64,000 nucleotides of DNA, taken from Nanobdellota archaeon. GTDB lineage: Archaea > Nanobdellota > Nanobdellia > Pacearchaeales > GW2011-AR1. Position 1 is the first letter of the stretch; each line of letters opens with the position of its first letter. The stretch is taken from the NCBI GenBank assembly GCA_038045405.1, contig JBBSYF010000001.1:101175-165174 (forward strand), read 5' to 3'. The notes beneath the pieces are model-generated. The model saw only the letters and a program-made list of their open reading frames with translations. It ran no database searches and was not told the DNA's origin. This document shows positions 4,192 through 64,000 of the stretch, piece after piece. Made by a program: the position numbers and the translations under genes.

Positions 4192-4562
4192 TTTATCAAA
4201 ACCCTCACACCTTTAGCTTCAGGATTCTTTTTAATTTCATCCATTATGCTTGAAATTTGTATCTTTTCTTTTAAGAGTTTTTCTTTTGCCTTTTCCGAAA
4301 ATTTGTAAGCAACAACTCTTATTTTCTTTTTGATTTCTCCTTGAGACAGAACCTTTCCCGGAATAACAACCACGTCTCCCTCTTTCGCCAAGAAGTCTAT
4401 TTGACCAAGGTTAAGATCTATTGATTCTCTTCTAGGGCTGGAAAGAATACTTGCAACTTCAAGCCATTTTACTTTTTTCTTTGCAGCGATTGTAGTCTCA
4501 ACTAATTCATTATTTGTTTTTCTTCTAATCTGACTTTCTATTTTTGTTTTTGTTTTTGTCAT
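4188..4562 (-). CDS. rpl18e: 50S ribosomal protein L18e (eL18)
   Basis: Size, basic composition and its position in the canonical archaeal L18e-L13-S9 cluster. Confidence 0.75.
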   Translation of the reverse strand: MTKTKTKIESQIRRKTNNELVETTIAAKKKVKWLEVASILSSPRRESIDLNLGQIDFLAKEGDVVVIPGKVLSQGEIKKKIRVVAYKFSEKAKEKLLKEKIQISSIMDEIKKNPEAKGVRVLIK

Positions 4563-4689
4563 TTTATCTTTGTTATCTTTATCACTAAAACAAGCGACAC
4601 GTTAGAATTAATCCCGCTAACGCGTTAACTTGCAGGTAAAAATTTGAGTTTTACAGTGTTTATAAAGATTTTTGTTTCCCCTTTTCTTA

Positions 4690-5286
4690 TTACTTAAGAA
4701 GTCTTCGAAAACATTCTGCAGTCAATTTAGCATCAGTAAGAGCATTGTGAGCCTCTCCTTCTTTTATCACCTTCCCCTTTTCAACAACCCTCCGAGTATC
4801 TTTCAACCCGCAAAATTCCATAACACTAGGAAGATTCATATCACTTTTTCCTGTTTTTCCATCTTTCATTTTGAATTGCCCTTTTTTCTCCTTATACTTT
4901 AAACTAGCGAGAGTATGCAAATCTATTGTTCTAACACCTATCACTTCTGAGAATTTGTCTTTAATCCCCTATCGAATACATTTACTCTGTATAAAGATAA
5001 TATCAAAACCGACATTGTGTCCTGCAACTATTCTCTCATCGCATGTTTTACACCACTTCAAAAAATTTTCAATCATTTGTTTCTGACTCTGCTTTTTCTT
5101 GTCTCTTAAGTCCTCTTTTGTTTTTCCGATAACCATAAGAGCCTCTTCAGCAATTTCATCTTCATCGTCTATTCTACTCTCTTCAAGAAATACATTTTTT
5201 GGATTTTCAAACTCGACTGCTCCAATCTGCCAAATTCCACACCTTCCAGTGTCAAGCCCACTTGATTCAATATCTAAGACTATCAT
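4690..5286 (-). pseudogene. DEDDh (DnaQ-like) 3'-5' exonuclease interrupted by one in-frame TAG at 4969-4971
   Basis: Exo I DIESSG, Exo II HNVGFD and Exo III HNALTDA motifs lie in one continuous frame; the two listed ORFs share a frame and are separated only by a TAG. Confidence 0.6.
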
Positions 5287-5309
5287 TTTGTCATTTACCT
5301 ACCAAAACA

Positions 5310-7541: not shown

Positions 7542-8128
7542 TTTTTATTTGTAGTAGTTTTAAAATTTTCAGCTTTATTCTCAACTTTATCTTCAGTCTT
7601 TCCACGCTTCTTTATTCCCATACTCTTCGTTTTATTTTTTCTGAAGTGGCTCTTTGTTCTTTGCCCTCTTACAGGAAGATTTGCAGCGTGCCTTATTCCT
7701 CTGTAGCTCTTTATTTTCTTTAATCTTTTAATATCGAATTCTGTTTGTAACTCCAATCCGGTTCCAGTCAAGTGAAGATTTTTTCCAGTTTCAAAGTCCC
7801 TGTTTCTATTAAAAAGAAATTCAGGTATTTTTGGATTTTTTATGAATTCTGTAACCATCTTTATTTCTTCTTCCGTCAAAGAACCAATCTTTCTATTTTT
7901 GTCTATTTTTAACACATGGCATGTGGCGTTAGCTAAACTCCATGAAACACCGTTGATTTTAGTCAGCGCAGGATAAACTTTCATAGCTCCTTCTATGTCT
8001 TCAGACATCAATCTTACCATTTTCTCTCCGTATTTCTTCTCTTCTCTCATCTTATTAGCCATGTACTCTGATATCTCTGGCTTTTGATGAGGCACCTTCG
8101 TTTCTGGTTGTGATGTTTGTTTTTCCAT
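7538..8128 (-). CDS. rps13: 30S ribosomal protein S13 (uS13)
   Basis: SYRGIRHAANLPVRGQRTKSH motif. Confidence 0.85.
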   Translation of the reverse strand: MEKQTSQPETKVPHQKPEISEYMANKMREEKKYGEKMVRLMSEDIEGAMKVYPALTKINGVSWSLANATCHVLKIDKNRKIGSLTEEEIKMVTEFIKNPKIPEFLFNRNRDFETGKNLHLTGTGLELQTEFDIKRLKKIKSYRGIRHAANLPVRGQRTKSHFRKNKTKSMGIKKRGKTEDKVENKAENFKTTTNKK

Positions 8129-8131
8129 TTT

Positions 8132-8668
8132 TTAATTTACAAATAAGTTGTGTCTTTCCACAGATGTTAACTCTTTGATTATTCTTTTTTCAATTGCCCT
8201 TTCTGGATCGGGTAAGTTTTGAATTCTTTTTTTCATATCATCAAAACTTTCAAATGGCTTTTCTTTTCTTTGTTTAAGAATCTCTTGCATATGTTTTTTT
8301 CCTAAACCTGGAAGAAGCTCAATTTGATGCATTCTCTTATTTATTGCTTCTGACTTGTTAAAAAACTCCAAAAATTTAACTTCTCTTTCCTTAACTACCT
8401 TTTTGATGAACTCATGCAATGAACTTTTTGCTGACTCCGTCAATTTTTCCCTTGGTAATCTTCCCAAAATGTAGTATATCTTATCTCTCTTGCCGTCGCC
8501 TATGTAAACTCTCTCCCCTATTTCCAAAGAAATCCCCCTTCTAGGTACAAGTTCAAGCAGTGTCAAATTTAATTCTCCAATTGCTTGAGCCATAGGCATC
8601 ATCTTTCTCTCCAAAGGATAGCCATTTGGCAGATATTCTAAGACTATTGCGTATTCTTCTTTTTCCAT
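8132..8668 (-). CDS. DUF655-family predicted RNA-binding protein with a helix-hairpin-helix
   Basis: N-terminal EEYAIVLEYLPNGYP... and HhH LLPGLGKK; it holds the conserved archaeal position next to rps13. Confidence 0.55.
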   Translation of the reverse strand: MEKEEYAIVLEYLPNGYPLERKMMPMAQAIGELNLTLLELVPRRGISLEIGERVYIGDGKRDKIYYILGRLPREKLTESAKSSLHEFIKKVVKEREVKFLEFFNKSEAINKRMHQIELLPGLGKKHMQEILKQRKEKPFESFDDMKKRIQNLPDPERAIEKRIIKELTSVERHNLFVN

Positions 8669-8673
8669 TTTCT

Positions 8674-8979
8674 TTATTTGAATTCTTTGACAACGTCAAG
8701 TATTTTTTTTGATTCATCTTCGTCTAAACTAACATCAGTGAATATTTTGTTCAAATTCTCAGCATCTTCAGGTAAAAAATCAATAACTTTGGCAATATGT
8801 TCAAGTTTTACTTTTATTAAGTTTAAAGATTCAAGTTTTACTTTCATTTTTTTTGCGTCTTTATCATCCAATTTCACAAATCTCTTTATGAACTTTTTAA
8901 GCTCTGCCTCACTTTCTTTTTCTTCTCCAAGGTATTCTGTTGCTTCTGCCATACTTAGTGGAGTCATATTTTTTATCAT
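8674..8979 (-). CDS. rpoF: probable RNA polymerase subunit F (Rpb4-like)
   Basis: About 100 aa acidic helical protein between rpl21e and the DUF655 gene, which is the conserved archaeal context for rpoF. The sequence similarity is weak. Confidence 0.4.
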   Translation of the reverse strand: MIKNMTPLSMAEATEYLGEEKESEAELKKFIKRFVKLDDKDAKKMKVKLESLNLIKVKLEHIAKVIDFLPEDAENLNKIFTDVSLDEDESKKILDVVKEFK

Positions 8980-58728: not shown

Positions 58729-59046
58729 TTAAGAATACTTTGCCTCCAATTCTTTCATCAATAATTTATATTCGGATAATAGTTCAGGGTCCATGTTTGC
58801 ACTACCATAAGTCACCACATTTGCAAGAGTATGCTCGTCCAAGGTTAAATGTCTCTTTGATAATCTGCGAACACTTTCTCTGCCAAACTTAATCTTATGA
58901 ACAAGTCTTGATGTTGATGACCCACTGGTTGCTGCAATTATCTCAACAGTTCCATCTCCGTCTTTTCTGCTGCAATATCCCATCCCATAACCAGCGACGG
59001 ACATCTTGCTTCCCACTTTTATATCTTCAAATTTAATTACATTCAT
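58729..59046 (-). CDS. hypothetical 105-aa protein inserted between rpl23 and rpl2
   Basis: The ORF is directly abutted by the rpl23 stop and the rpl2 start, which implies co-transcription. Family not recognised. Confidence 0.4.
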   Translation of the reverse strand: MNVIKFEDIKVGSKMSVAGYGMGYCSRKDGDGTVEIIAATSGSSTSRLVHKIKFGRESVRRLSKRHLTLDEHTLANVVTYGSANMDPELLSEYKLLMKELEAKYS

Positions 59047-60092: not shown

Positions 60093-61046
60093 TTATCTTA
60101 GTTCTATAAACTCAAATTTTTTCTTTCCTTGTTTTTTAGTTTCTCTTAAGGGGAAAGTAGCAACAAGTTGTCTTTTTGGAGGGCCTTGTACAGAACCCTT
60201 AACAAGAATGTAGTCTGTTTTCAGGTCTCCAAAATTATGAATATTACTCAAGCCTTTTTTCCCTTCAGATTTTCCCATGTCAACTATTGTGTTATTGTAT
60301 GAAACTCTCGTAAACATTCCATACTGCCCTGCCATTGGTGCTCTGAATGTAGTTCTCGCAGGATGCCAAGGTCCTAAGCTTCCGGGACGTCTAACACCCT
60401 TTTCAGACTTATGTGACTTTAATGTGATTCCAAATCTCTTAACTGGTCCTGAAAGCCCCCTCCCAGTTGTTAAACCCCTGAAATCAACTAACTGTCCTCC
60501 TTTGAAGACACTTGAAATGGAAATTTCTTTTCCAAGATTTTCTTTTACAAATTCAAGTTTTTCGTCGAGACTTCCAGTCAATCCAATTTCACTTAAATCA
60601 GGAGTTTTCTTGATGTTTGTTTTTTTAACTTGCGAATAACATATAACTTTGATGTCGTCATACTCTTCTCTTTTAACACTATCAACCTTTCCATGCTTAC
60701 CTTTTGCCATTATCACTTTTCTTCTCATTTCTTTGTCAAGGTTTTCAGAAAGAATTTCTTTTGCAGGGATTCCGTCTTTGTAAAATCTTACAGAGAAAAT
60801 CTTCATCGTTGGGCACTCTAAAATTGTTACAGGAAGAACAATTTTCTTTCCCTTAGTCATAGAATGTTCGGTGTTGTCTTTCACATAAGCAGAGGCCATT
60901 CCTGCTTTGTAACATATGAATCCTTTAAGTCCTTTAAGATTTTTTTCAGAATCAATAGCACCCCAGTTAACTCTAGGCAAAAATTTTCTGGCCCTTTTCC
61001 TTGGCCAAAATTGCAAGCTTCCTTTCCTTGGTGTTCGTGTTGACAT
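60093..61046 (-). CDS. rpl3: 50S ribosomal protein L3 (uL3)
   Basis: N-terminal PRKGSLQFWPRKRA...; first gene of the operon. Confidence 0.9.
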   Translation of the reverse strand: MSTRTPRKGSLQFWPRKRARKFLPRVNWGAIDSEKNLKGLKGFICYKAGMASAYVKDNTEHSMTKGKKIVLPVTILECPTMKIFSVRFYKDGIPAKEILSENLDKEMRRKVIMAKGKHGKVDSVKREEYDDIKVICYSQVKKTNIKKTPDLSEIGLTGSLDEKLEFVKENLGKEISISSVFKGGQLVDFRGLTTGRGLSGPVKRFGITLKSHKSEKGVRRPGSLGPWHPARTTFRAPMAGQYGMFTRVSYNNTIVDMGKSEGKKGLSNIHNFGDLKTDYILVKGSVQGPPKRQLVATFPLRETKKQGKKKFEFIELR

Positions 61047-61196
61047 TTGTTATTGTTATACTGTTAGTACTGATAGCGGTTTTCATTTTACCTTCCCTGG
61101 AATATAATACCAAGAAAAAAGGGGTTTTTAAATCTTTTTTAGGCGTTGCGGGAGAGATGTATTGTAACATTAAAAGGATTTAATTAGGCTAGAAAA

Positions 61197-61451
61197 TTAA
61201 TCAAACATTCCTTTTCCCATCCGTGTTTGAATATACTCCAATAATTTCGGACTATTTTTAACTATCAATTTTCCTTTTATTCTTATTGCTTCTTTAAGCA
61301 CCATAGTTCTTTGACCGCCACTTCCTCTTTGAGATTTTGTTCTTTCTGTGTACAAAGGAGTAACTAAAACTAATGTGTAAGGACTTATATCATCTTCTTC
61401 ACATTCCATAACAATTCCATCTGCCCCTTTTAACCAATTATCAGTTTCCAT
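61197..61451 (-). CDS. hypothetical protein
   Basis: 84 aa ORF upstream of the ribosomal operon; no recognised family. Confidence 0.25.
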   Translation of the reverse strand: METDNWLKGADGIVMECEEDDISPYTLVLVTPLYTERTKSQRGSGGQRTMVLKEAIRIKGKLIVKNSPKLLEYIQTRMGKGMFD

Positions 61452-61553
61452 TATGTAAAACCATTTAAAGAGTTTTTATTCCCCAATCTCTTTTTTCCCA
61501 TCTCACAATACTTTTTATCAATCTCTATGTTTATGCTGTTTCGGTCCAATTTA

Positions 61554-61754
61554 TTACAATCCACCTTTGAAGCCTCTTAATACCCATAAAATTAAAGCAA
61601 TAACTGTGGCTATCACAAATATTAAACCAATAACGAATAACAAACCTGTCGAATCTGTGCTACTAGAACTTAGAAATAAAAATCCAACAAATATCAAAAC
61701 GGTAGCACCAATTAATGTGCTTATTATGGTCTTAATGTTACCTTTTGAGTTCAT
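61554..61754 (-). CDS. small two-TM hypothetical membrane protein
   Basis: 66 aa ORF with two hydrophobic helices, overlapped by an antisense ORF of similar size. Confidence 0.2.
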   Translation of the reverse strand: MNSKGNIKTIISTLIGATVLIFVGFLFLSSSSTDSTGLLFVIGLIFVIATVIALILWVLRGFKGGL

Positions 61755-61772
61755 ATCTTAATTACCTCCTTT

Positions 61773-63350
61773 TTATTCATCTCGTTTTGCTCTCACTGCA
61801 GCTAATTTTTTGTTTAATTCTTCCATATCTTTTTGTATTTTTTCTTCCTCATCGAATGCTCTCATAATCTCTCCTGTTCTTCTCAAAATCATATCTCTCA
61901 GCACAAAAATCCTGCTCTTATCCTCGCCCCTCTCTTTTACCATAATCTCAGCAATACCTTCAGCAATGTTAATTGTAGCGTAGAATATTGAATCTTTTGT
62001 TGCAGAGAAAGCAGGGAAAATTACGTTTGTAAATATTTCAATACCTTTCTCATCACTTAAAGAAACTTGCTTTACTATGCTCTTGTCTTCTAAATCGACA
62101 AACTTGTGGGTGTATCTAAACTTTTTCCCATTAATTGTGAGTTCATATTTTTTCTTATTATGTGTTTTTTTTGGATTTCTTTCCCTTTCTGTTTCTGGTT
62201 CTTTGACTTCTTGGATAACTGAAACCTCTTGCCGTTCTCTCTTTTCTATTTCAGTGTCTATTTTTTTATTTTTTCCACTCTGACTCAGAGGAGTTGCATA
62301 ACTTTTTAGTTCAGGTGTGTTTTTGATGGCTCTCGCAATTATATCCTCCTGGACACTCATTTTTTCTTCCAAAGCAGGGCTAATTTTTGAAACTGTATCG
62401 TATTTCCTTGCTTTAGCCAAAAAGGGCTTTACCTGTTCCCTCATTTTAGTTTCAAACTCAAAATACTCTCCAGACTCTTTAATCCACTCTCTTTTGTTGT
62501 GTGTAACAGGTATACCTTCAACAAAAATTTCTCCTGCAATTCTTCTAGCATCTGGGTGAGGACTGAATCCTATTTTATCATGTTGTGTAATCAGTCTGTT
62601 GTGCCTATAAGTGTTAAAACCATAAAATCCTTTATTTCCTGAATAACCACTTTTCATCAAACCAATCCAACCTTTTATTACTCCTCCACTAGACAATTTA
62701 AAAGAAAATTCTGACTTTCCATCTTCGGTAAGCTCCTGTTCTACAGGGAGACATAAACTATTGTTAACCTTTAATATTATTTCACCACTAGAGATATAAG
62801 GTCCGAATCTTAACGCCAAATCTTCTTTCACATTAGTTACCAAGTTAGGGTAATATTTAATTTTCAACTTATCAACAGTAATTTTAGTGCCAGTTTCATT
62901 AGGGGATGTCTTTTGAATTCTCATTGGATGCTTATTCCAATCTCCCCTTTTTAACCAATCATCTTCGTCAAATTCTAAAACAAATCTTTTATCATTCTTT
63001 CTTTGTGTGGTATCAATAACAAATCTTTTTCCTAAACTCTGACAAGATGTTTTCAGACCCAAACCAAACTCTCCTAACTTGTTCTTTTTTTCAGAGTGGG
63101 CTAATTTTAGAGATTTAGCTGCGTTGTTTTCGTCCATTCCCATCCCATCATCATTTACTTCAATAAAATCTTTATTCAACAAAATATTCACATTAAGCAC
63201 TGCATCATCAAATCTGGCATCTATTGAATTGTCGACCAGTTCCGAGATTGCCTGACTAACACTATATCCTGCCTGACCAATTTTTGGCATTAAACTTTTG
63301 TCAGGAGTTATGTCAATCTGTTTGATTTCATCTGTTTCTGTGTTTTGCAT
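61773..63350 (-). CDS. GHKL-superfamily ATPase (MORC/paraMORC-like HATPase_c)
   Basis: Bergerat-fold motifs: N box ELVDNSIDA, G1 box DDGMGMD, G2 box GEFGLGLKTS. A C-terminal region of about 200 aa has unknown function. Confidence 0.65.
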   Translation of the reverse strand: MQNTETDEIKQIDITPDKSLMPKIGQAGYSVSQAISELVDNSIDARFDDAVLNVNILLNKDFIEVNDDGMGMDENNAAKSLKLAHSEKKNKLGEFGLGLKTSCQSLGKRFVIDTTQRKNDKRFVLEFDEDDWLKRGDWNKHPMRIQKTSPNETGTKITVDKLKIKYYPNLVTNVKEDLALRFGPYISSGEIILKVNNSLCLPVEQELTEDGKSEFSFKLSSGGVIKGWIGLMKSGYSGNKGFYGFNTYRHNRLITQHDKIGFSPHPDARRIAGEIFVEGIPVTHNKREWIKESGEYFEFETKMREQVKPFLAKARKYDTVSKISPALEEKMSVQEDIIARAIKNTPELKSYATPLSQSGKNKKIDTEIEKRERQEVSVIQEVKEPETERERNPKKTHNKKKYELTINGKKFRYTHKFVDLEDKSIVKQVSLSDEKGIEIFTNVIFPAFSATKDSIFYATINIAEGIAEIMVKERGEDKSRIFVLRDMILRRTGEIMRAFDEEEKIQKDMEELNKKLAAVRAKRDE

Positions 63351-63436
63351 AGATATGCAAATAAGATATAACTATTTAAATGTTTCTATATTCGAGTCGG
63401 AATATAAGATTTAGAATTTCTTATAAAGGTATTATC

Positions 63437-63994
63437 TTATATCTCAAAATCCTTTTCAGTCTTTACTTCCTTACCATCAACATTAGTGGTTCTAATGATT
63501 TTTCCTTTTCTTTTAGCCATCTCACGGATTTTGGCATAATCTGTTTCTCCCTTAGGCATAACAATGCCTGTTATTATTAGTCTATGCTCAACACTTGCTT
63601 TTTTACAGTCCGGCAAATCCCAGAAAAAGTCCTCTCTTGCTTGCCCAAAGTATTTTTCATCAATTTCCATCTGGCAGAATTTATCGTCTATTTTTCCTTC
63701 ACTTTTTCCTGGCTTTGGTAGTTTGGCCTTTATTCTTAATTTTAGCCCGTTACCATCTGCATTCAGAAGAAAGCAATAAACCTGCGGTGCAATCTTTTTT
63801 ATTTGACTGCTTGGCATGTCTTTAACTTCATAAATTATTTTTCCCTCTTTCTTCTTTCCAGAAAGCCCAGGAATATCTTGCCTACTCCATATAGTTCCGT
63901 AAAAATTTGCTTCTCCTAAATTAGCAACAAATAAAGTAAAATCATTTGCATACTCAAAACTTCCCTTAATCTTTACGTTTTTTGTTCTCCACAA
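63437..63994 (-). CDS. hypothetical protein upstream of the GHKL ATPase (possible PD-(D/E)xK-like nuclease)
   Basis: 185 aa ORF, apparently co-oriented with the ATPase in an operon. A D...(15)...EVK spacing (RQDIP...IIYEVKD) is weakly suggestive of a restriction-endonuclease-like core. Confidence 0.3.
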   Translation of the reverse strand: MWRTKNVKIKGSFEYANDFTLFVANLGEANFYGTIWSRQDIPGLSGKKKEGKIIYEVKDMPSSQIKKIAPQVYCFLLNADGNGLKLRIKAKLPKPGKSEGKIDDKFCQMEIDEKYFGQAREDFFWDLPDCKKASVEHRLIITGIVMPKGETDYAKIREMAKRKGKIIRTTNVDGKEVKTEKDFEI

Positions 63995-64000
63995 TCCAAG

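Follow-up and report, generated by a model that had tools for sequence, protein, structure and literature searches.

Prokaryotic MORC proteins, in which a GHKL ATPase domain is joined to an S5-fold domain, were predicted in 2008 to act in systems of the restriction type and to have given rise to the eukaryotic MORC chromatin silencers (Iyer, Abhiman and Aravind 2008, PMC2292703). A superfamily II helicase, together with a nuclease and/or a methylase, is encoded in ~70% of the operons described for them, and an S5 motif, GhXhhpXXRhl, was defined as MORC-specific and separates MORCs from paraMORCs and other GHKL proteins (PMC2292703). The same authors also reported paraMORCs to which TIR and nuclease domains are either fused or encoded next door, as well as pairs of a MORC and a paraMORC1 protein (PMC2292703). 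Here, we describe a MORC-family ATPase gene that lies in a strain-variable island next to a ribosomal protein operon in a groundwater archaeon of the Nanoarchaeota (DPANN). The 64,000-nucleotide stretch that was analyzed (contig JBBSYF010000001.1) is called the window throughout, and positions are counted from its first letter.

Judged by its sequence, the window ATPase passes every test for the known prokaryotic MORC family and is not a new kind of protein. It has in common with that family the GHKL and S5 domains, all of the ATP-binding motifs, the basic residue of the S5 domain, and the GhXhhpXXRhl motif; the sporadic distribution by lateral transfer, the restriction-modification and defence neighbourhoods, and the occasional second GHKL protein resembling paraMORC1 (here in loci L052 and L053) are also shared (PMC2292703). 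In contrast to most described operons, the island in the window has no helicase, nuclease, or methylase and holds only two short open reading frames (ORFs) of 66 and 84 amino acids (aa) besides the ATPase gene, which agrees with an association that is frequent and not required. What is new in the subfamily to which the window ATPase belongs is a private C-terminal domain, a bias toward bacteria of the Candidate Phyla Radiation (CPR) and DPANN archaea, and a single swappable downstream gene, with a MORC plus a putative membrane peptide as the minimal form.

The nearest experimentally tested analogue is VcSduA, a GHKL protein of the paraMORC3 kind fused to a Shedu nuclease, in which the GHKL and middle domains control a DUF4263 (SduA_C) nuclease (PMC12137116; bioRxiv 10.1101/2023.08.10.552793). 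VcSduA protects against phage, which requires both its ATPase and its nuclease residues (PMC12137116), and Gu et al. class proteins of this type as Shedu type I-D. Two loci in our survey (L008 and L014) resemble a split version, with a MORC gene followed by a separate SduA_C gene, whereas the window protein has neither a nuclease domain nor an SduA neighbour and paraMORC3 proteins lack the MORC S5 signature. MutL is built alike, with a GHKL-S5 module that a disordered linker joins to a C-terminal domain for dimerisation, and it serves as an ATP-operated DNA clamp that licenses a nuclease; the window ATPase is not its orthologue, lacks MutL_C, and is strain-variable rather than housekeeping. 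MzaB (of the MZA system) and paraMORC4 are GHKL ATPases within multi-gene defence systems, and paraMORC4 has a TIR domain either fused or in a separate neighbouring gene, as in loci L119 and L124. However, no MzaA, C, D, or E gene is near the window ATPase, and paraMORCs lack the MORC motif that it carries. Among eukaryotic proteins, the MORC2, MORC3, and MORC4 modules (PDB 6o1e, 5ix1, 7k7t, and 9cdh) are the best sequence relatives, with E values of 1.6e-15 to 1e-9 and a common S5 THNK loop. Eukaryotic MORCs dimerise at the N terminus in an ATP-driven manner and have a coiled coil at the C terminus, features that for the window MORC can serve only as an analogy: structural identity is 13 to 17%, the C-terminal domain is unrelated, and the CW zinc finger, the chromodomain, and other chromatin readers are missing.

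An intact MORC ATPase on a strain-variable island

The 525-aa ATPase is a true prokaryotic MORC, intact and with all catalytic motifs present. Its reading frame contains ELVDNSIDA, DDGMGMD, and GEFGLGLKTS, and Pfam recognizes HATPase_c_3 (E 5.9e-19), HATPase_c (E 2.3e-7), and, over residues 221 to 308, Morc6_S5 (28.1 bits against a gathering cut-off of 26.2). In an alignment of 40 sequences of the MORC family (A1), GHKL motifs I (E37, N41, and D44), II (D67 and G71), III (G93 to G98), and IV (G154-T155) are invariant or at least 90% conserved. The MORC signature of the S5 domain reads G244-F-N-T-Y-R-H-N-R252-L-I (family consensus YGFRVFRRGRLI), with G244, F245, R249, and R252 invariant in the same alignment, and is followed by a loop, T283-H-N-K286-R-E, that is at least 90% conserved from T283 to E288 and aligns with PTHNKQDF of MORC3; K286 in this loop is the predicted phosphate-sensing lysine. 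When sequences from the PDB were searched with a profile, MORC3, MORC4, and MORC2 ranked first (E 1.6e-15 to 4e-8), matching in two stretches (GHKL and S5) of which the second covers the THNK loop. More than 500 homologues of the ATPase were found, the full-length ones at 47 to 73% identity.

Downstream of these two domains the protein becomes less familiar, and Pfam gives no match for residues ~320 to 525. A monomeric AlphaFold2 model reached a predicted local distance difference test score (pLDDT) of 79, and Foldseek matched it to the GHKL and transducer modules of TRAP1, SMCHD1, and MORC4, the root mean square deviation being lowest for MORC4 (5.2 Å) and SMCHD1 (6.3 to 7.0 Å). The linker falls below a pLDDT of 50 at residues 356 to 377 and 381 to 399 and is variable and gap-rich in A1. 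Beyond it, residues 400 to 525 are modelled (pLDDT 73 to 90) as a four-stranded sheet with several helices and a terminal helix of ~45 residues (480 to 524). This ~125-aa domain belongs to no Pfam family, yet A1 shows G408, H415, F417, G436, T441, N442, F445, P446, D453, F456, Y457, E464, and A467 to be invariant in it. Because HMMER, run exhaustively against 1.84 billion cluster representatives, recovered the domain in only 54 clusters (50% identity), we regard it as private to this MORC subfamily; it nearly always stands at the C terminus of proteins of ~500 to 550 aa. It is predicted to be a constitutive dimerisation module.

A protein with a GHKL domain could also be a housekeeping enzyme, such as a divergent orthologue of MutL, topoisomerase VI-B, or Hsp90. 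The N terminus does give weak MutL and topoisomerase VI-B matches, as expected within one superfamily, and Foldseek ranks TRAP1/Hsp90 highly. However, the MutL models score only 14 to 22 bits against cut-offs of 180 to 693, the matches to MORC3, MORC4, and MORC2 are far stronger, the S5 signature is specific to MORCs, and Pfam finds no MutL_C, Toprim, or Hsp90 C-terminal domain in the protein. The other NCBIfam and PADLOC models that respond (MzaB, histidine kinase, and sacsin) likewise give only weak N-terminal matches far below their cut-offs: MzaB NF041932 scores 45.4 bits against 850 over residues 27 to 155 only, the PADLOC MzaB model is confined to the N terminus (E 3e-7), and the TmtA match is weaker still. 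Neither Pfam nor PADLOC detects SduA_C. As the gene is moreover patchy across phyla and absent from near-identical strains, the latter being enough to refute a housekeeping role, we attach next to no credence to this explanation. A preliminary description of the locus, made from the sequence alone, had reported complete Bergerat motifs, a MORC-type ATPase, and an uncharacterised C-terminal part, and it had asked whether the gene was a MutL, GyrB, or Hsp90 orthologue instead; the first three points are borne out, and the answer to the question is that the protein is of the MORC type and accessory.

That accessory status is seen directly in the strains of this population. Window positions 61142 to 63430 form a small island that is present in some strains and absent from others. 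The window and contig L002 are 99.8% identical over 61141 to 56001 and 99.3% identical over 64000 to 63431, with the same flank figures for L002 to L004, and in L002 the island interval (2.29 kb) is replaced by ~0.9 kb of unrelated DNA holding a 63-aa ParB-like fragment and, on the other strand, a 135-aa ORF. Since strains with near-identical flanks keep the gene upstream of the ATPase (a 220-aa gene discussed below) and lack the ATPase itself, the interval is a strain-variable insertion and not an operon with that gene. The island occurs with 100% identity at the same site in several other samples. Contig L110, 2,408 bp long and from another sample, corresponds to window 63497 to 61090, that is, to the island with ~50 bp of each flank, a shape expected for an assembly bubble from co-existing strains. 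The composition of the island is not deviant (33.2% GC versus 34.0% for the window). Its borders carry neither direct nor inverted repeats that are meaningful and lack a tRNA, an integrase, and any Rfam match, and the idea of an integrative element was rejected at these borders since the repeat, tRNA, and Rfam searches were all empty. Contig L191 has a MORC gene split into 302 and 215 aa, which we did not use as evidence of pseudogenisation because the split goes back to four small indels, all in a single contig of low coverage whose remaining sequence is 99.8% identical.

Mobility of the MORC gene and exchange of its downstream partners

The family was surveyed at 71 full-length loci, 59 of them unique; ORFs in the fetched loci were called crudely (longest non-overlapping, genetic code 11), and many of the metagenome contigs are short. 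Full-length homologues at 47 to 49% identity occur in CPR bacteria (Wildermuth-, Kaiser-, Taylor-, and Paceibacteria), in Woese- and Micrarchaeota, and in Nitrososphaerales, Chloroflexi, and Acidobacteria. A viral origin was considered and rejected, as IMG/VR holds only remote N-terminal GHKL relatives of at most 34% identity.

What lies immediately downstream of the MORC gene varies among these loci. At 32 of the 59 unique loci, a same-strand ORF follows within 60 nt, and nearly all of these ORFs are unrelated to one another; the downstream genes lie 4 to 23 nt away or overlap the MORC gene. Eleven of the partners, those with protease, TIR, NYN, HEPN, SduA_C, or SMODS domains in the list that follows, are of an effector type. 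The domains recorded at this position are Trypsin_2 proteases (three cases), ClpP-like proteases (two), ThsB-type TIR domains (two, L119 and L124), DUF2188 (two), an NYN RNase, a Hypoth_Ymh/HEPN protein that also matches the PADLOC models Aga_HEPN and PD-Lambda-3_B, an SduA_C Shedu nuclease, a SMODS/CBASS cyclase (PADLOC E 7.5e-126), and a weak TGT-like match (one each), along with a second GHKL ATPase in the two closest DPANN relatives. SduA_C as a separate downstream gene is confined to L008 and L014, and further partners with hydrophobic segments look like membrane proteins. For the two loci with a second GHKL gene (L052 and L053), we looked for a C-terminal domain shared with the MORC, as heterodimerisation might require, and rejected the idea because the similarity did not exceed that of shuffled sequences.

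Partners differ even where the MORCs are nearly the same. The MORCs of L115 and L117 are 95% identical, and the first is followed by a ClpP-like and the second by a trypsin-like protease; MORCs 82 to 90% identical to these two have a TIR protein, a DUF2188 protein, a coiled-coil membrane protein, or a 55-aa protein instead. The MORCs of L016 (with the cyclase as partner) and L153 (with the HEPN protein) are 73% identical. Different partners beside MORCs of 95% identity point to rapid exchange. In their DNA, L115 and L117 have a similarity that covers the MORC gene and ~100 bp upstream and nothing more, and across the 59 distinct homologues the MORC gene moves as a unit. The position of the variable partner, downstream of the MORC gene, is held in the window only by the 66-aa ORF with its two predicted helices. 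Family mobility and partner swapping can thus be read directly from the loci, as can the domain identity, intact catalytic motifs, and accessory status of the window gene.

Genes of genome defence recur in the wider neighbourhoods. One contains DpnII restriction-modification genes, a MORC, SduA, and an integrase; the L053 island combines the MORC and second GHKL genes with GmrSD and type III restriction-modification genes and has a transposase adjoining it; and in another relative a nucleotidyltransferase/HEPN pair lies upstream of the MORC gene. A PLD-SNF2 helicase is encoded two genes downstream in a distant haloarchaeal relative (L049, 25% identity), and helicase, methylase, and restriction genes occur among the relatives only there and farther along the L053 island.

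Upstream partners were found as well. In 10 loci of a more distant clade (36 to 43% identity), a conserved protein of 70 to 105 aa is translationally coupled to the MORC; it matches nothing in Pfam or PADLOC and may be a dedicated regulator or adaptor. The loci concerned are L141, L143, L148, L152, L158, L159, L160, L162, L176, and L018, with a spacing of -4 to +12 nt in most, and the consensus of the protein includes ...ERFKRLATxRTNxxLxxLRxLGNLSNRxxYDYSEEEIxKIF.... PC4-like single-stranded DNA (ssDNA)-binding proteins precede the MORC in four loci, and helix-turn-helix proteins with DnaA_C and sigma70_r4 domains precede it in three, the same domains being fused to the MORC C terminus in L017. 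Together, the helix-turn-helix fusion and neighbours and the PC4-like neighbours point to nucleic acid as the substrate.

A looser set of relatives occurs in Nitrosopumilaceae and Cenarchaeum (L021 to L026). These proteins of 617 to 719 aa share only the N-terminal ~300 residues of the MORC and differ in their C-terminal part, and each gene is followed by one of ~360 to 430 aa; both of those scanned (L021 and L025) encode AbiEii-type nucleotidyltransferases. By its position, the MORC-like ATPase would occupy the usual place of the AbiEi antitoxin there.

Layout of the locus and the genes around the MORC

The features of the locus are listed below. The island lies on the upstream side of a minus-strand rpl3-rpl4-rpl23-(105-aa ORF)-rpl2-rps19 operon that ends at 61046, and GC content is ~33 to 34% throughout the region.

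Positions of the MORC gene, its domains, and neighbouring features in the window
Feature	Position	Strand	Basis or remark
Strain-variable insertion, ~2.29 kb (MORC, 66-aa ORF, and 84-aa ORF)	61142..63430	.	Between the 220-aa gene and the rpl3 operon
MORC-family GHKL ATPase gene, 525 aa plus stop	61773..63350	-	ORF, Pfam, homologues, PDB relatives, AlphaFold2 model
GHKL (Bergerat) ATP-binding domain, residues ~20-190	62781..63293	-	Pfam match at residues 29-147; alignment A1
S5-fold transducer domain, residues ~191-320	62391..62780	-	Morc6_S5 match at residues 221-308; alignment A1
Helical segment, then Lys/Glu-rich, probably disordered linker, residues ~321-399	62154..62390	-	pLDDT; gap-rich in A1
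C-terminal domain private to the MORC subfamily, residues ~400-525	61776..62153	-	AlphaFold2 model, A1, HMMER
TATA-box-like element TTTAAATA	63373..63380	-	Sequence reading; 22 nt upstream of the MORC ATG
Shine-Dalgarno-like GGAGGT	61764..61769	-	Ahead of the 66-aa ORF, 9 nt from its ATG; within the 18 nt that follow the MORC stop
66-aa ORF, two strongly hydrophobic helices, candidate membrane effector, orphan	61554..61754	-	ORF; Kyte-Doolittle
84-aa ORF inside the island	61197..61451	-	ORF; no family match
3' 187 codons of a conserved 220-aa Nanoarchaeota gene, outside the MORC module	63437..64000	-	Cut by the window edge

The 66-aa ORF begins 18 nt after the MORC stop codon and is preceded by GGAGGT, an arrangement that would imply translational coupling of the two in one transcript. 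Its hydrophobic segments span residues 10 to 28 and 38 to 56 (Kyte-Doolittle 2.6 and 3.3, respectively). Matches are sub-threshold only, to membrane DUFs and to the PADLOC "2TM effector" (E 0.06 to 0.07) and PycTM (E 0.32) models, and among 5.8 billion proteins the ORF has no homologue but itself. The NCBI annotation apparently skips it, as the flanking genes carry consecutive accessions. For the 84-aa ORF, no family match was found in Pfam, PADLOC, or NCBIfam, and its only relatives, copies of at least 90% identity, all come from this same island setting; it could be a real gene or a spurious frame. Weak tblastn pieces link it to the MORC. The notion that it is a decayed MORC or GHKL fragment was nonetheless rejected, because it is absent from the list of matches to the MORC profile whereas 1,211 of 2,000 shuffled copies are present. 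We also observed two adjacent repeats (24 nt at 88% and 29 nt at 83%) that link 61389-61442 to 62940-62986 in permuted order. The partner within the MORC encodes FVLEFDEDDWLKRGD, the other copy lies at the start of the 84-aa ORF, and both are probably chance similarities in AT-rich DNA.

The gene on the other side of the MORC deserves closer attention, because the preliminary description had treated it as a complete 185-aa protein, seen in it a weak PD-(D/E)xK-like spacing, and proposed that it forms a two-gene operon, a defence or epigenetic cassette, with the ATPase. An operon with a nuclease as the MORC partner would not be out of place, given that MORC-nuclease pairing is common in the literature (PMC2292703) and that the two genes share a strand across an 86-nt spacer. 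Yet, the frame stays open to base 64000, with the codons CTT and GGA and no stop ahead of the listed TTG, and a full-length homologue (P0121) has 220 aa and is 99% identical over all 187 window residues; the TTG start and the length of 185 aa are therefore artefacts of the window edge, and what the window encodes is a 220-aa protein cut down to its last 187 residues. P0121 is annotated as a hypothetical protein of a Nanoarchaeota metagenome-assembled genome and nothing further. A protein search returned 463 further homologues, nearly all of 218 to 243 aa and at 55 to 90% identity.

The linkage of this gene is to the ribosomal operon. Contigs L002 (where the full-length gene occupies 8030-8692), L003, and L004 encode an identical 220-aa protein and have the order AI-2E transporter (opposite strand), 220-aa gene, and rpl3 operon, with no ATPase. 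The same order, again without a MORC, is kept in L050 and L051, in which the protein is 88 and 75% identical, respectively, and its gene lies directly upstream of rpl3. Over the same two genome pairs, identities are 93 and 67% for L3, 88 and 62% for L4, and 91 and 71% for L2, so the 220-aa protein is conserved as strongly as the adjoining ribosomal proteins. Homologues of it are absent from all 59 MORC loci. By the archaeal promoter rule, the TATA-box-like element in the 86-nt spacer, TTTAAATA, is a candidate promoter of the MORC gene's own, from which a leaderless or short-leader transcript would start, and its place between the two genes argues for separate transcription. Scans for sigma-70 promoters and terminators stayed at background level, and their models do not apply to archaea.

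Nor does the protein look like a nuclease. The 220-aa protein and 33 homologues gave no match in Pfam, NCBIfam, PADLOC, or PDB sequences. Its AlphaFold2 model is of high quality (pLDDT 93.3; predicted template modelling score 0.90), and Foldseek found no PDB match for it, nucleases included (best E 0.086, TM 0.16), and none in BFVD. The protein is basic (isoelectric point 9.5) and has an invariant loop, KLPKPGKxExKxDDKFCQ. It is restricted to Nanoarchaeota and related DPANN, always immediately upstream of rpl3. With linkage and fold both negative, the idea of a nuclease partner fails; the operon is ruled out by the truncated ORF and by the MORC-less sister strains and relatives, the nuclease identity by profiles and structure alike, and a two-gene system of this kind has in our judgement practically no chance of being correct. 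The 220-aa gene is a core gene of Nanoarchaeota and not a MORC partner, and its product may have an undescribed fold and be associated with the ribosome or with translation in this lineage alone. Of the preliminary description of this part of the locus, the placement just outside the ribosomal superoperon holds, the rpl3 operon being immediately downstream; the cassette, the operon, and the complete 185-aa protein do not, and conserved linkage of the upstream ORF to the ATPase, whose absence had been named in advance as counting against the pair, is indeed lacking. The suggestion of a defence or epigenetic module survives in part, in that homologues of the MORC stand among or directly ahead of defence genes, though no cassette with the upstream ORF exists.

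The 220-aa gene and rpl3 are separated by a spacer that acts as a hotspot, at least two different cargos having been seen there. The sister strains carry a second copy of the final 32 bp of the 220-aa gene (...KEVKTEKDFE; window 63441-63472) ~430 bp downstream (L002:8690-9127). The duplicate ends the 63-aa ORF, which has a ParB-like "DGLHR" motif, and is followed on the other strand by the 135-aa ORF, which has no family. A 760-kb long-read contig (L001; ENA ERZ1286166 contig_490) has two rve-type integrase/transposase genes and a LAGLIDADG endonuclease gene (844-1695, 1731-2549, and 4442-5296) ~5 to 9 kb past the window end, between the rpl1/rpl10/rpl12 cluster and the AI-2E transporter gene, where L002 is arranged differently; this suggests further strain-level variation just outside the window. 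Many ribosomal genes of L001 are frameshifted, likely through sequencing errors. Within the ribosomal operon, the 105-aa ORF between rpl23 and rpl2 (window 58729-59046, minus strand) has no family and is also present in L002 to L004. L050 has a 109-aa ORF at this place without detectable similarity to it, and L051 has none there and a 115-aa ORF between rpl3 and rpl4 instead. Small ORFs of this kind in DPANN ribosomal operons look like fast-evolving embedded genes.

Possible roles of the MORC island

A conserved NTPase with a private C-terminal domain, moving as a unit in the company of defence islands and coupled to a rapidly exchanged gene, suggests a sensor with a variable effector. That the MORC is a conserved ATP-driven switch with a swappable downstream effector is a proposition we would give an even chance. 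The protein has the build of MutL or of a MORC, with a GHKL-S5 module, a flexible charged linker, and a C-terminal domain whose long helix probably holds two subunits together. Upon ATP binding, both N-terminal modules would close around a substrate, most likely DNA, and the MORC would then act as the sensor or switch of a modular conflict system directed against viruses or mobile elements, with its output supplied by the gene coupled directly downstream. In the window, the 66-aa two-helix membrane ORF would supply that output by damaging the membrane, leading to dormancy or abortive infection; as an effector, it is a candidate and the weakest link of this reading. What we say here of DNA clamping, dimerisation, downstream coupling, and a defence phenotype is drawn from context. 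The island is probably part of an anti-virus module. A more far-reaching and correspondingly tentative version, which we think somewhat less likely to be right than wrong, is that the subfamily with the private C-terminal domain is the sensor of an undescribed modular defence system found mainly in ultra-small CPR bacteria and DPANN archaea, that its effectors are exchanged over very short evolutionary times, and that the window has its most minimal form, a MORC with a 66-aa membrane peptide.

Several observations weigh against these proposals. The closest relatives (59 to 65% identity) pair the MORC with a second GHKL ATPase that is absent here, and the window copy may therefore be reduced or a partner-less remnant. 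The candidate effector is an orphan that NCBI apparently leaves unannotated, and it may not be a gene. A tight downstream gene is missing at 27 of the 59 loci (many on short contigs); where one is present, it might be cargo of its own, linked to the MORC by no more than a common promoter. At least one lone homologue, in Chloroflexi, stands between the housekeeping genes coaE and selA. The proximity to defence genes was judged from individual examples only. The literature searched held no experiment on a canonical prokaryotic MORC, the fused GHKL-Shedu relative being the only one assayed, and PADLOC v2 has no model for this subfamily, to which it offers only the weak MzaB and weaker TmtA matches.

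Two other explanations draw on some of these same points. The MORC might work alone, as a DNA-compacting or silencing clamp in xenogeneic silencing, in mobile-element control, or in a chromatin-like role, which corresponds to the epigenetic option of the preliminary description, with unrelated cargo downstream and the 66- and 84-aa ORFs irrelevant or spurious. Eukaryotic MORCs bind and compact DNA, and MORC2-DNA structures (9cdh and 9cdj) are among the Foldseek matches. A clamp of N-terminal module, linker, and the protein's own conserved C-terminal domain needs no partner, the helix-turn-helix fusions and PC4-like neighbours suggest a DNA or ssDNA substrate, and the solo Chloroflexi gene, the loci lacking a tight downstream gene, and the orphan status of the 66-aa ORF would all fit. 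However, the tightly spaced or overlapping downstream genes mostly encode classic effector domains and not random cargo, the replacement of partners at 95% MORC identity amid unrelated flanks suggests that the pair travels together, and the window copy has no accompanying methyltransferase or reader domain; we consider a solitary clamp unlikely. The island might instead be selfish or decaying DNA, the remnant of a cassette of a MORC and a second, paraMORC1-like GHKL gene, now neutral or self-maintaining and with the small ORFs as leftovers. The second gene in the nearest relatives, of 493 to 497 aa, is missing here, and the small ORFs are orphans. The site, moreover, is a hotspot at which sister strains have a ParB-like fragment, a 135-aa gene, and a 32-bp duplication of the 220-aa gene end, and integrase genes of the insertion sequence type lie a few kilobases away in the long contig. 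Against decay speak the intact MORC ORF, in which every catalytic and family-invariant residue is present, and the complete identity of the island across several samples; its borders, furthermore, show no terminal repeats, tRNA, or integrase, and the 84-aa ORF has no similarity to the MORC profile. A remnant seems to us rather improbable.

For the genome itself, the outcome is a corrected gene model, in which the ORF upstream of the ATPase is a core gene and the spacer between it and rpl3 is a strain-level hotspot of accessory DNA. If the reading of the MORC as a switch with exchanged effectors is true, a compact subfamily with one swappable effector would offer an easy experimental route to the way in which such clamps recognize nucleic acid and transmit a signal. 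Few defence systems are known from the small genomes of CPR bacteria and DPANN archaea, and this one would extend a very sparse list.

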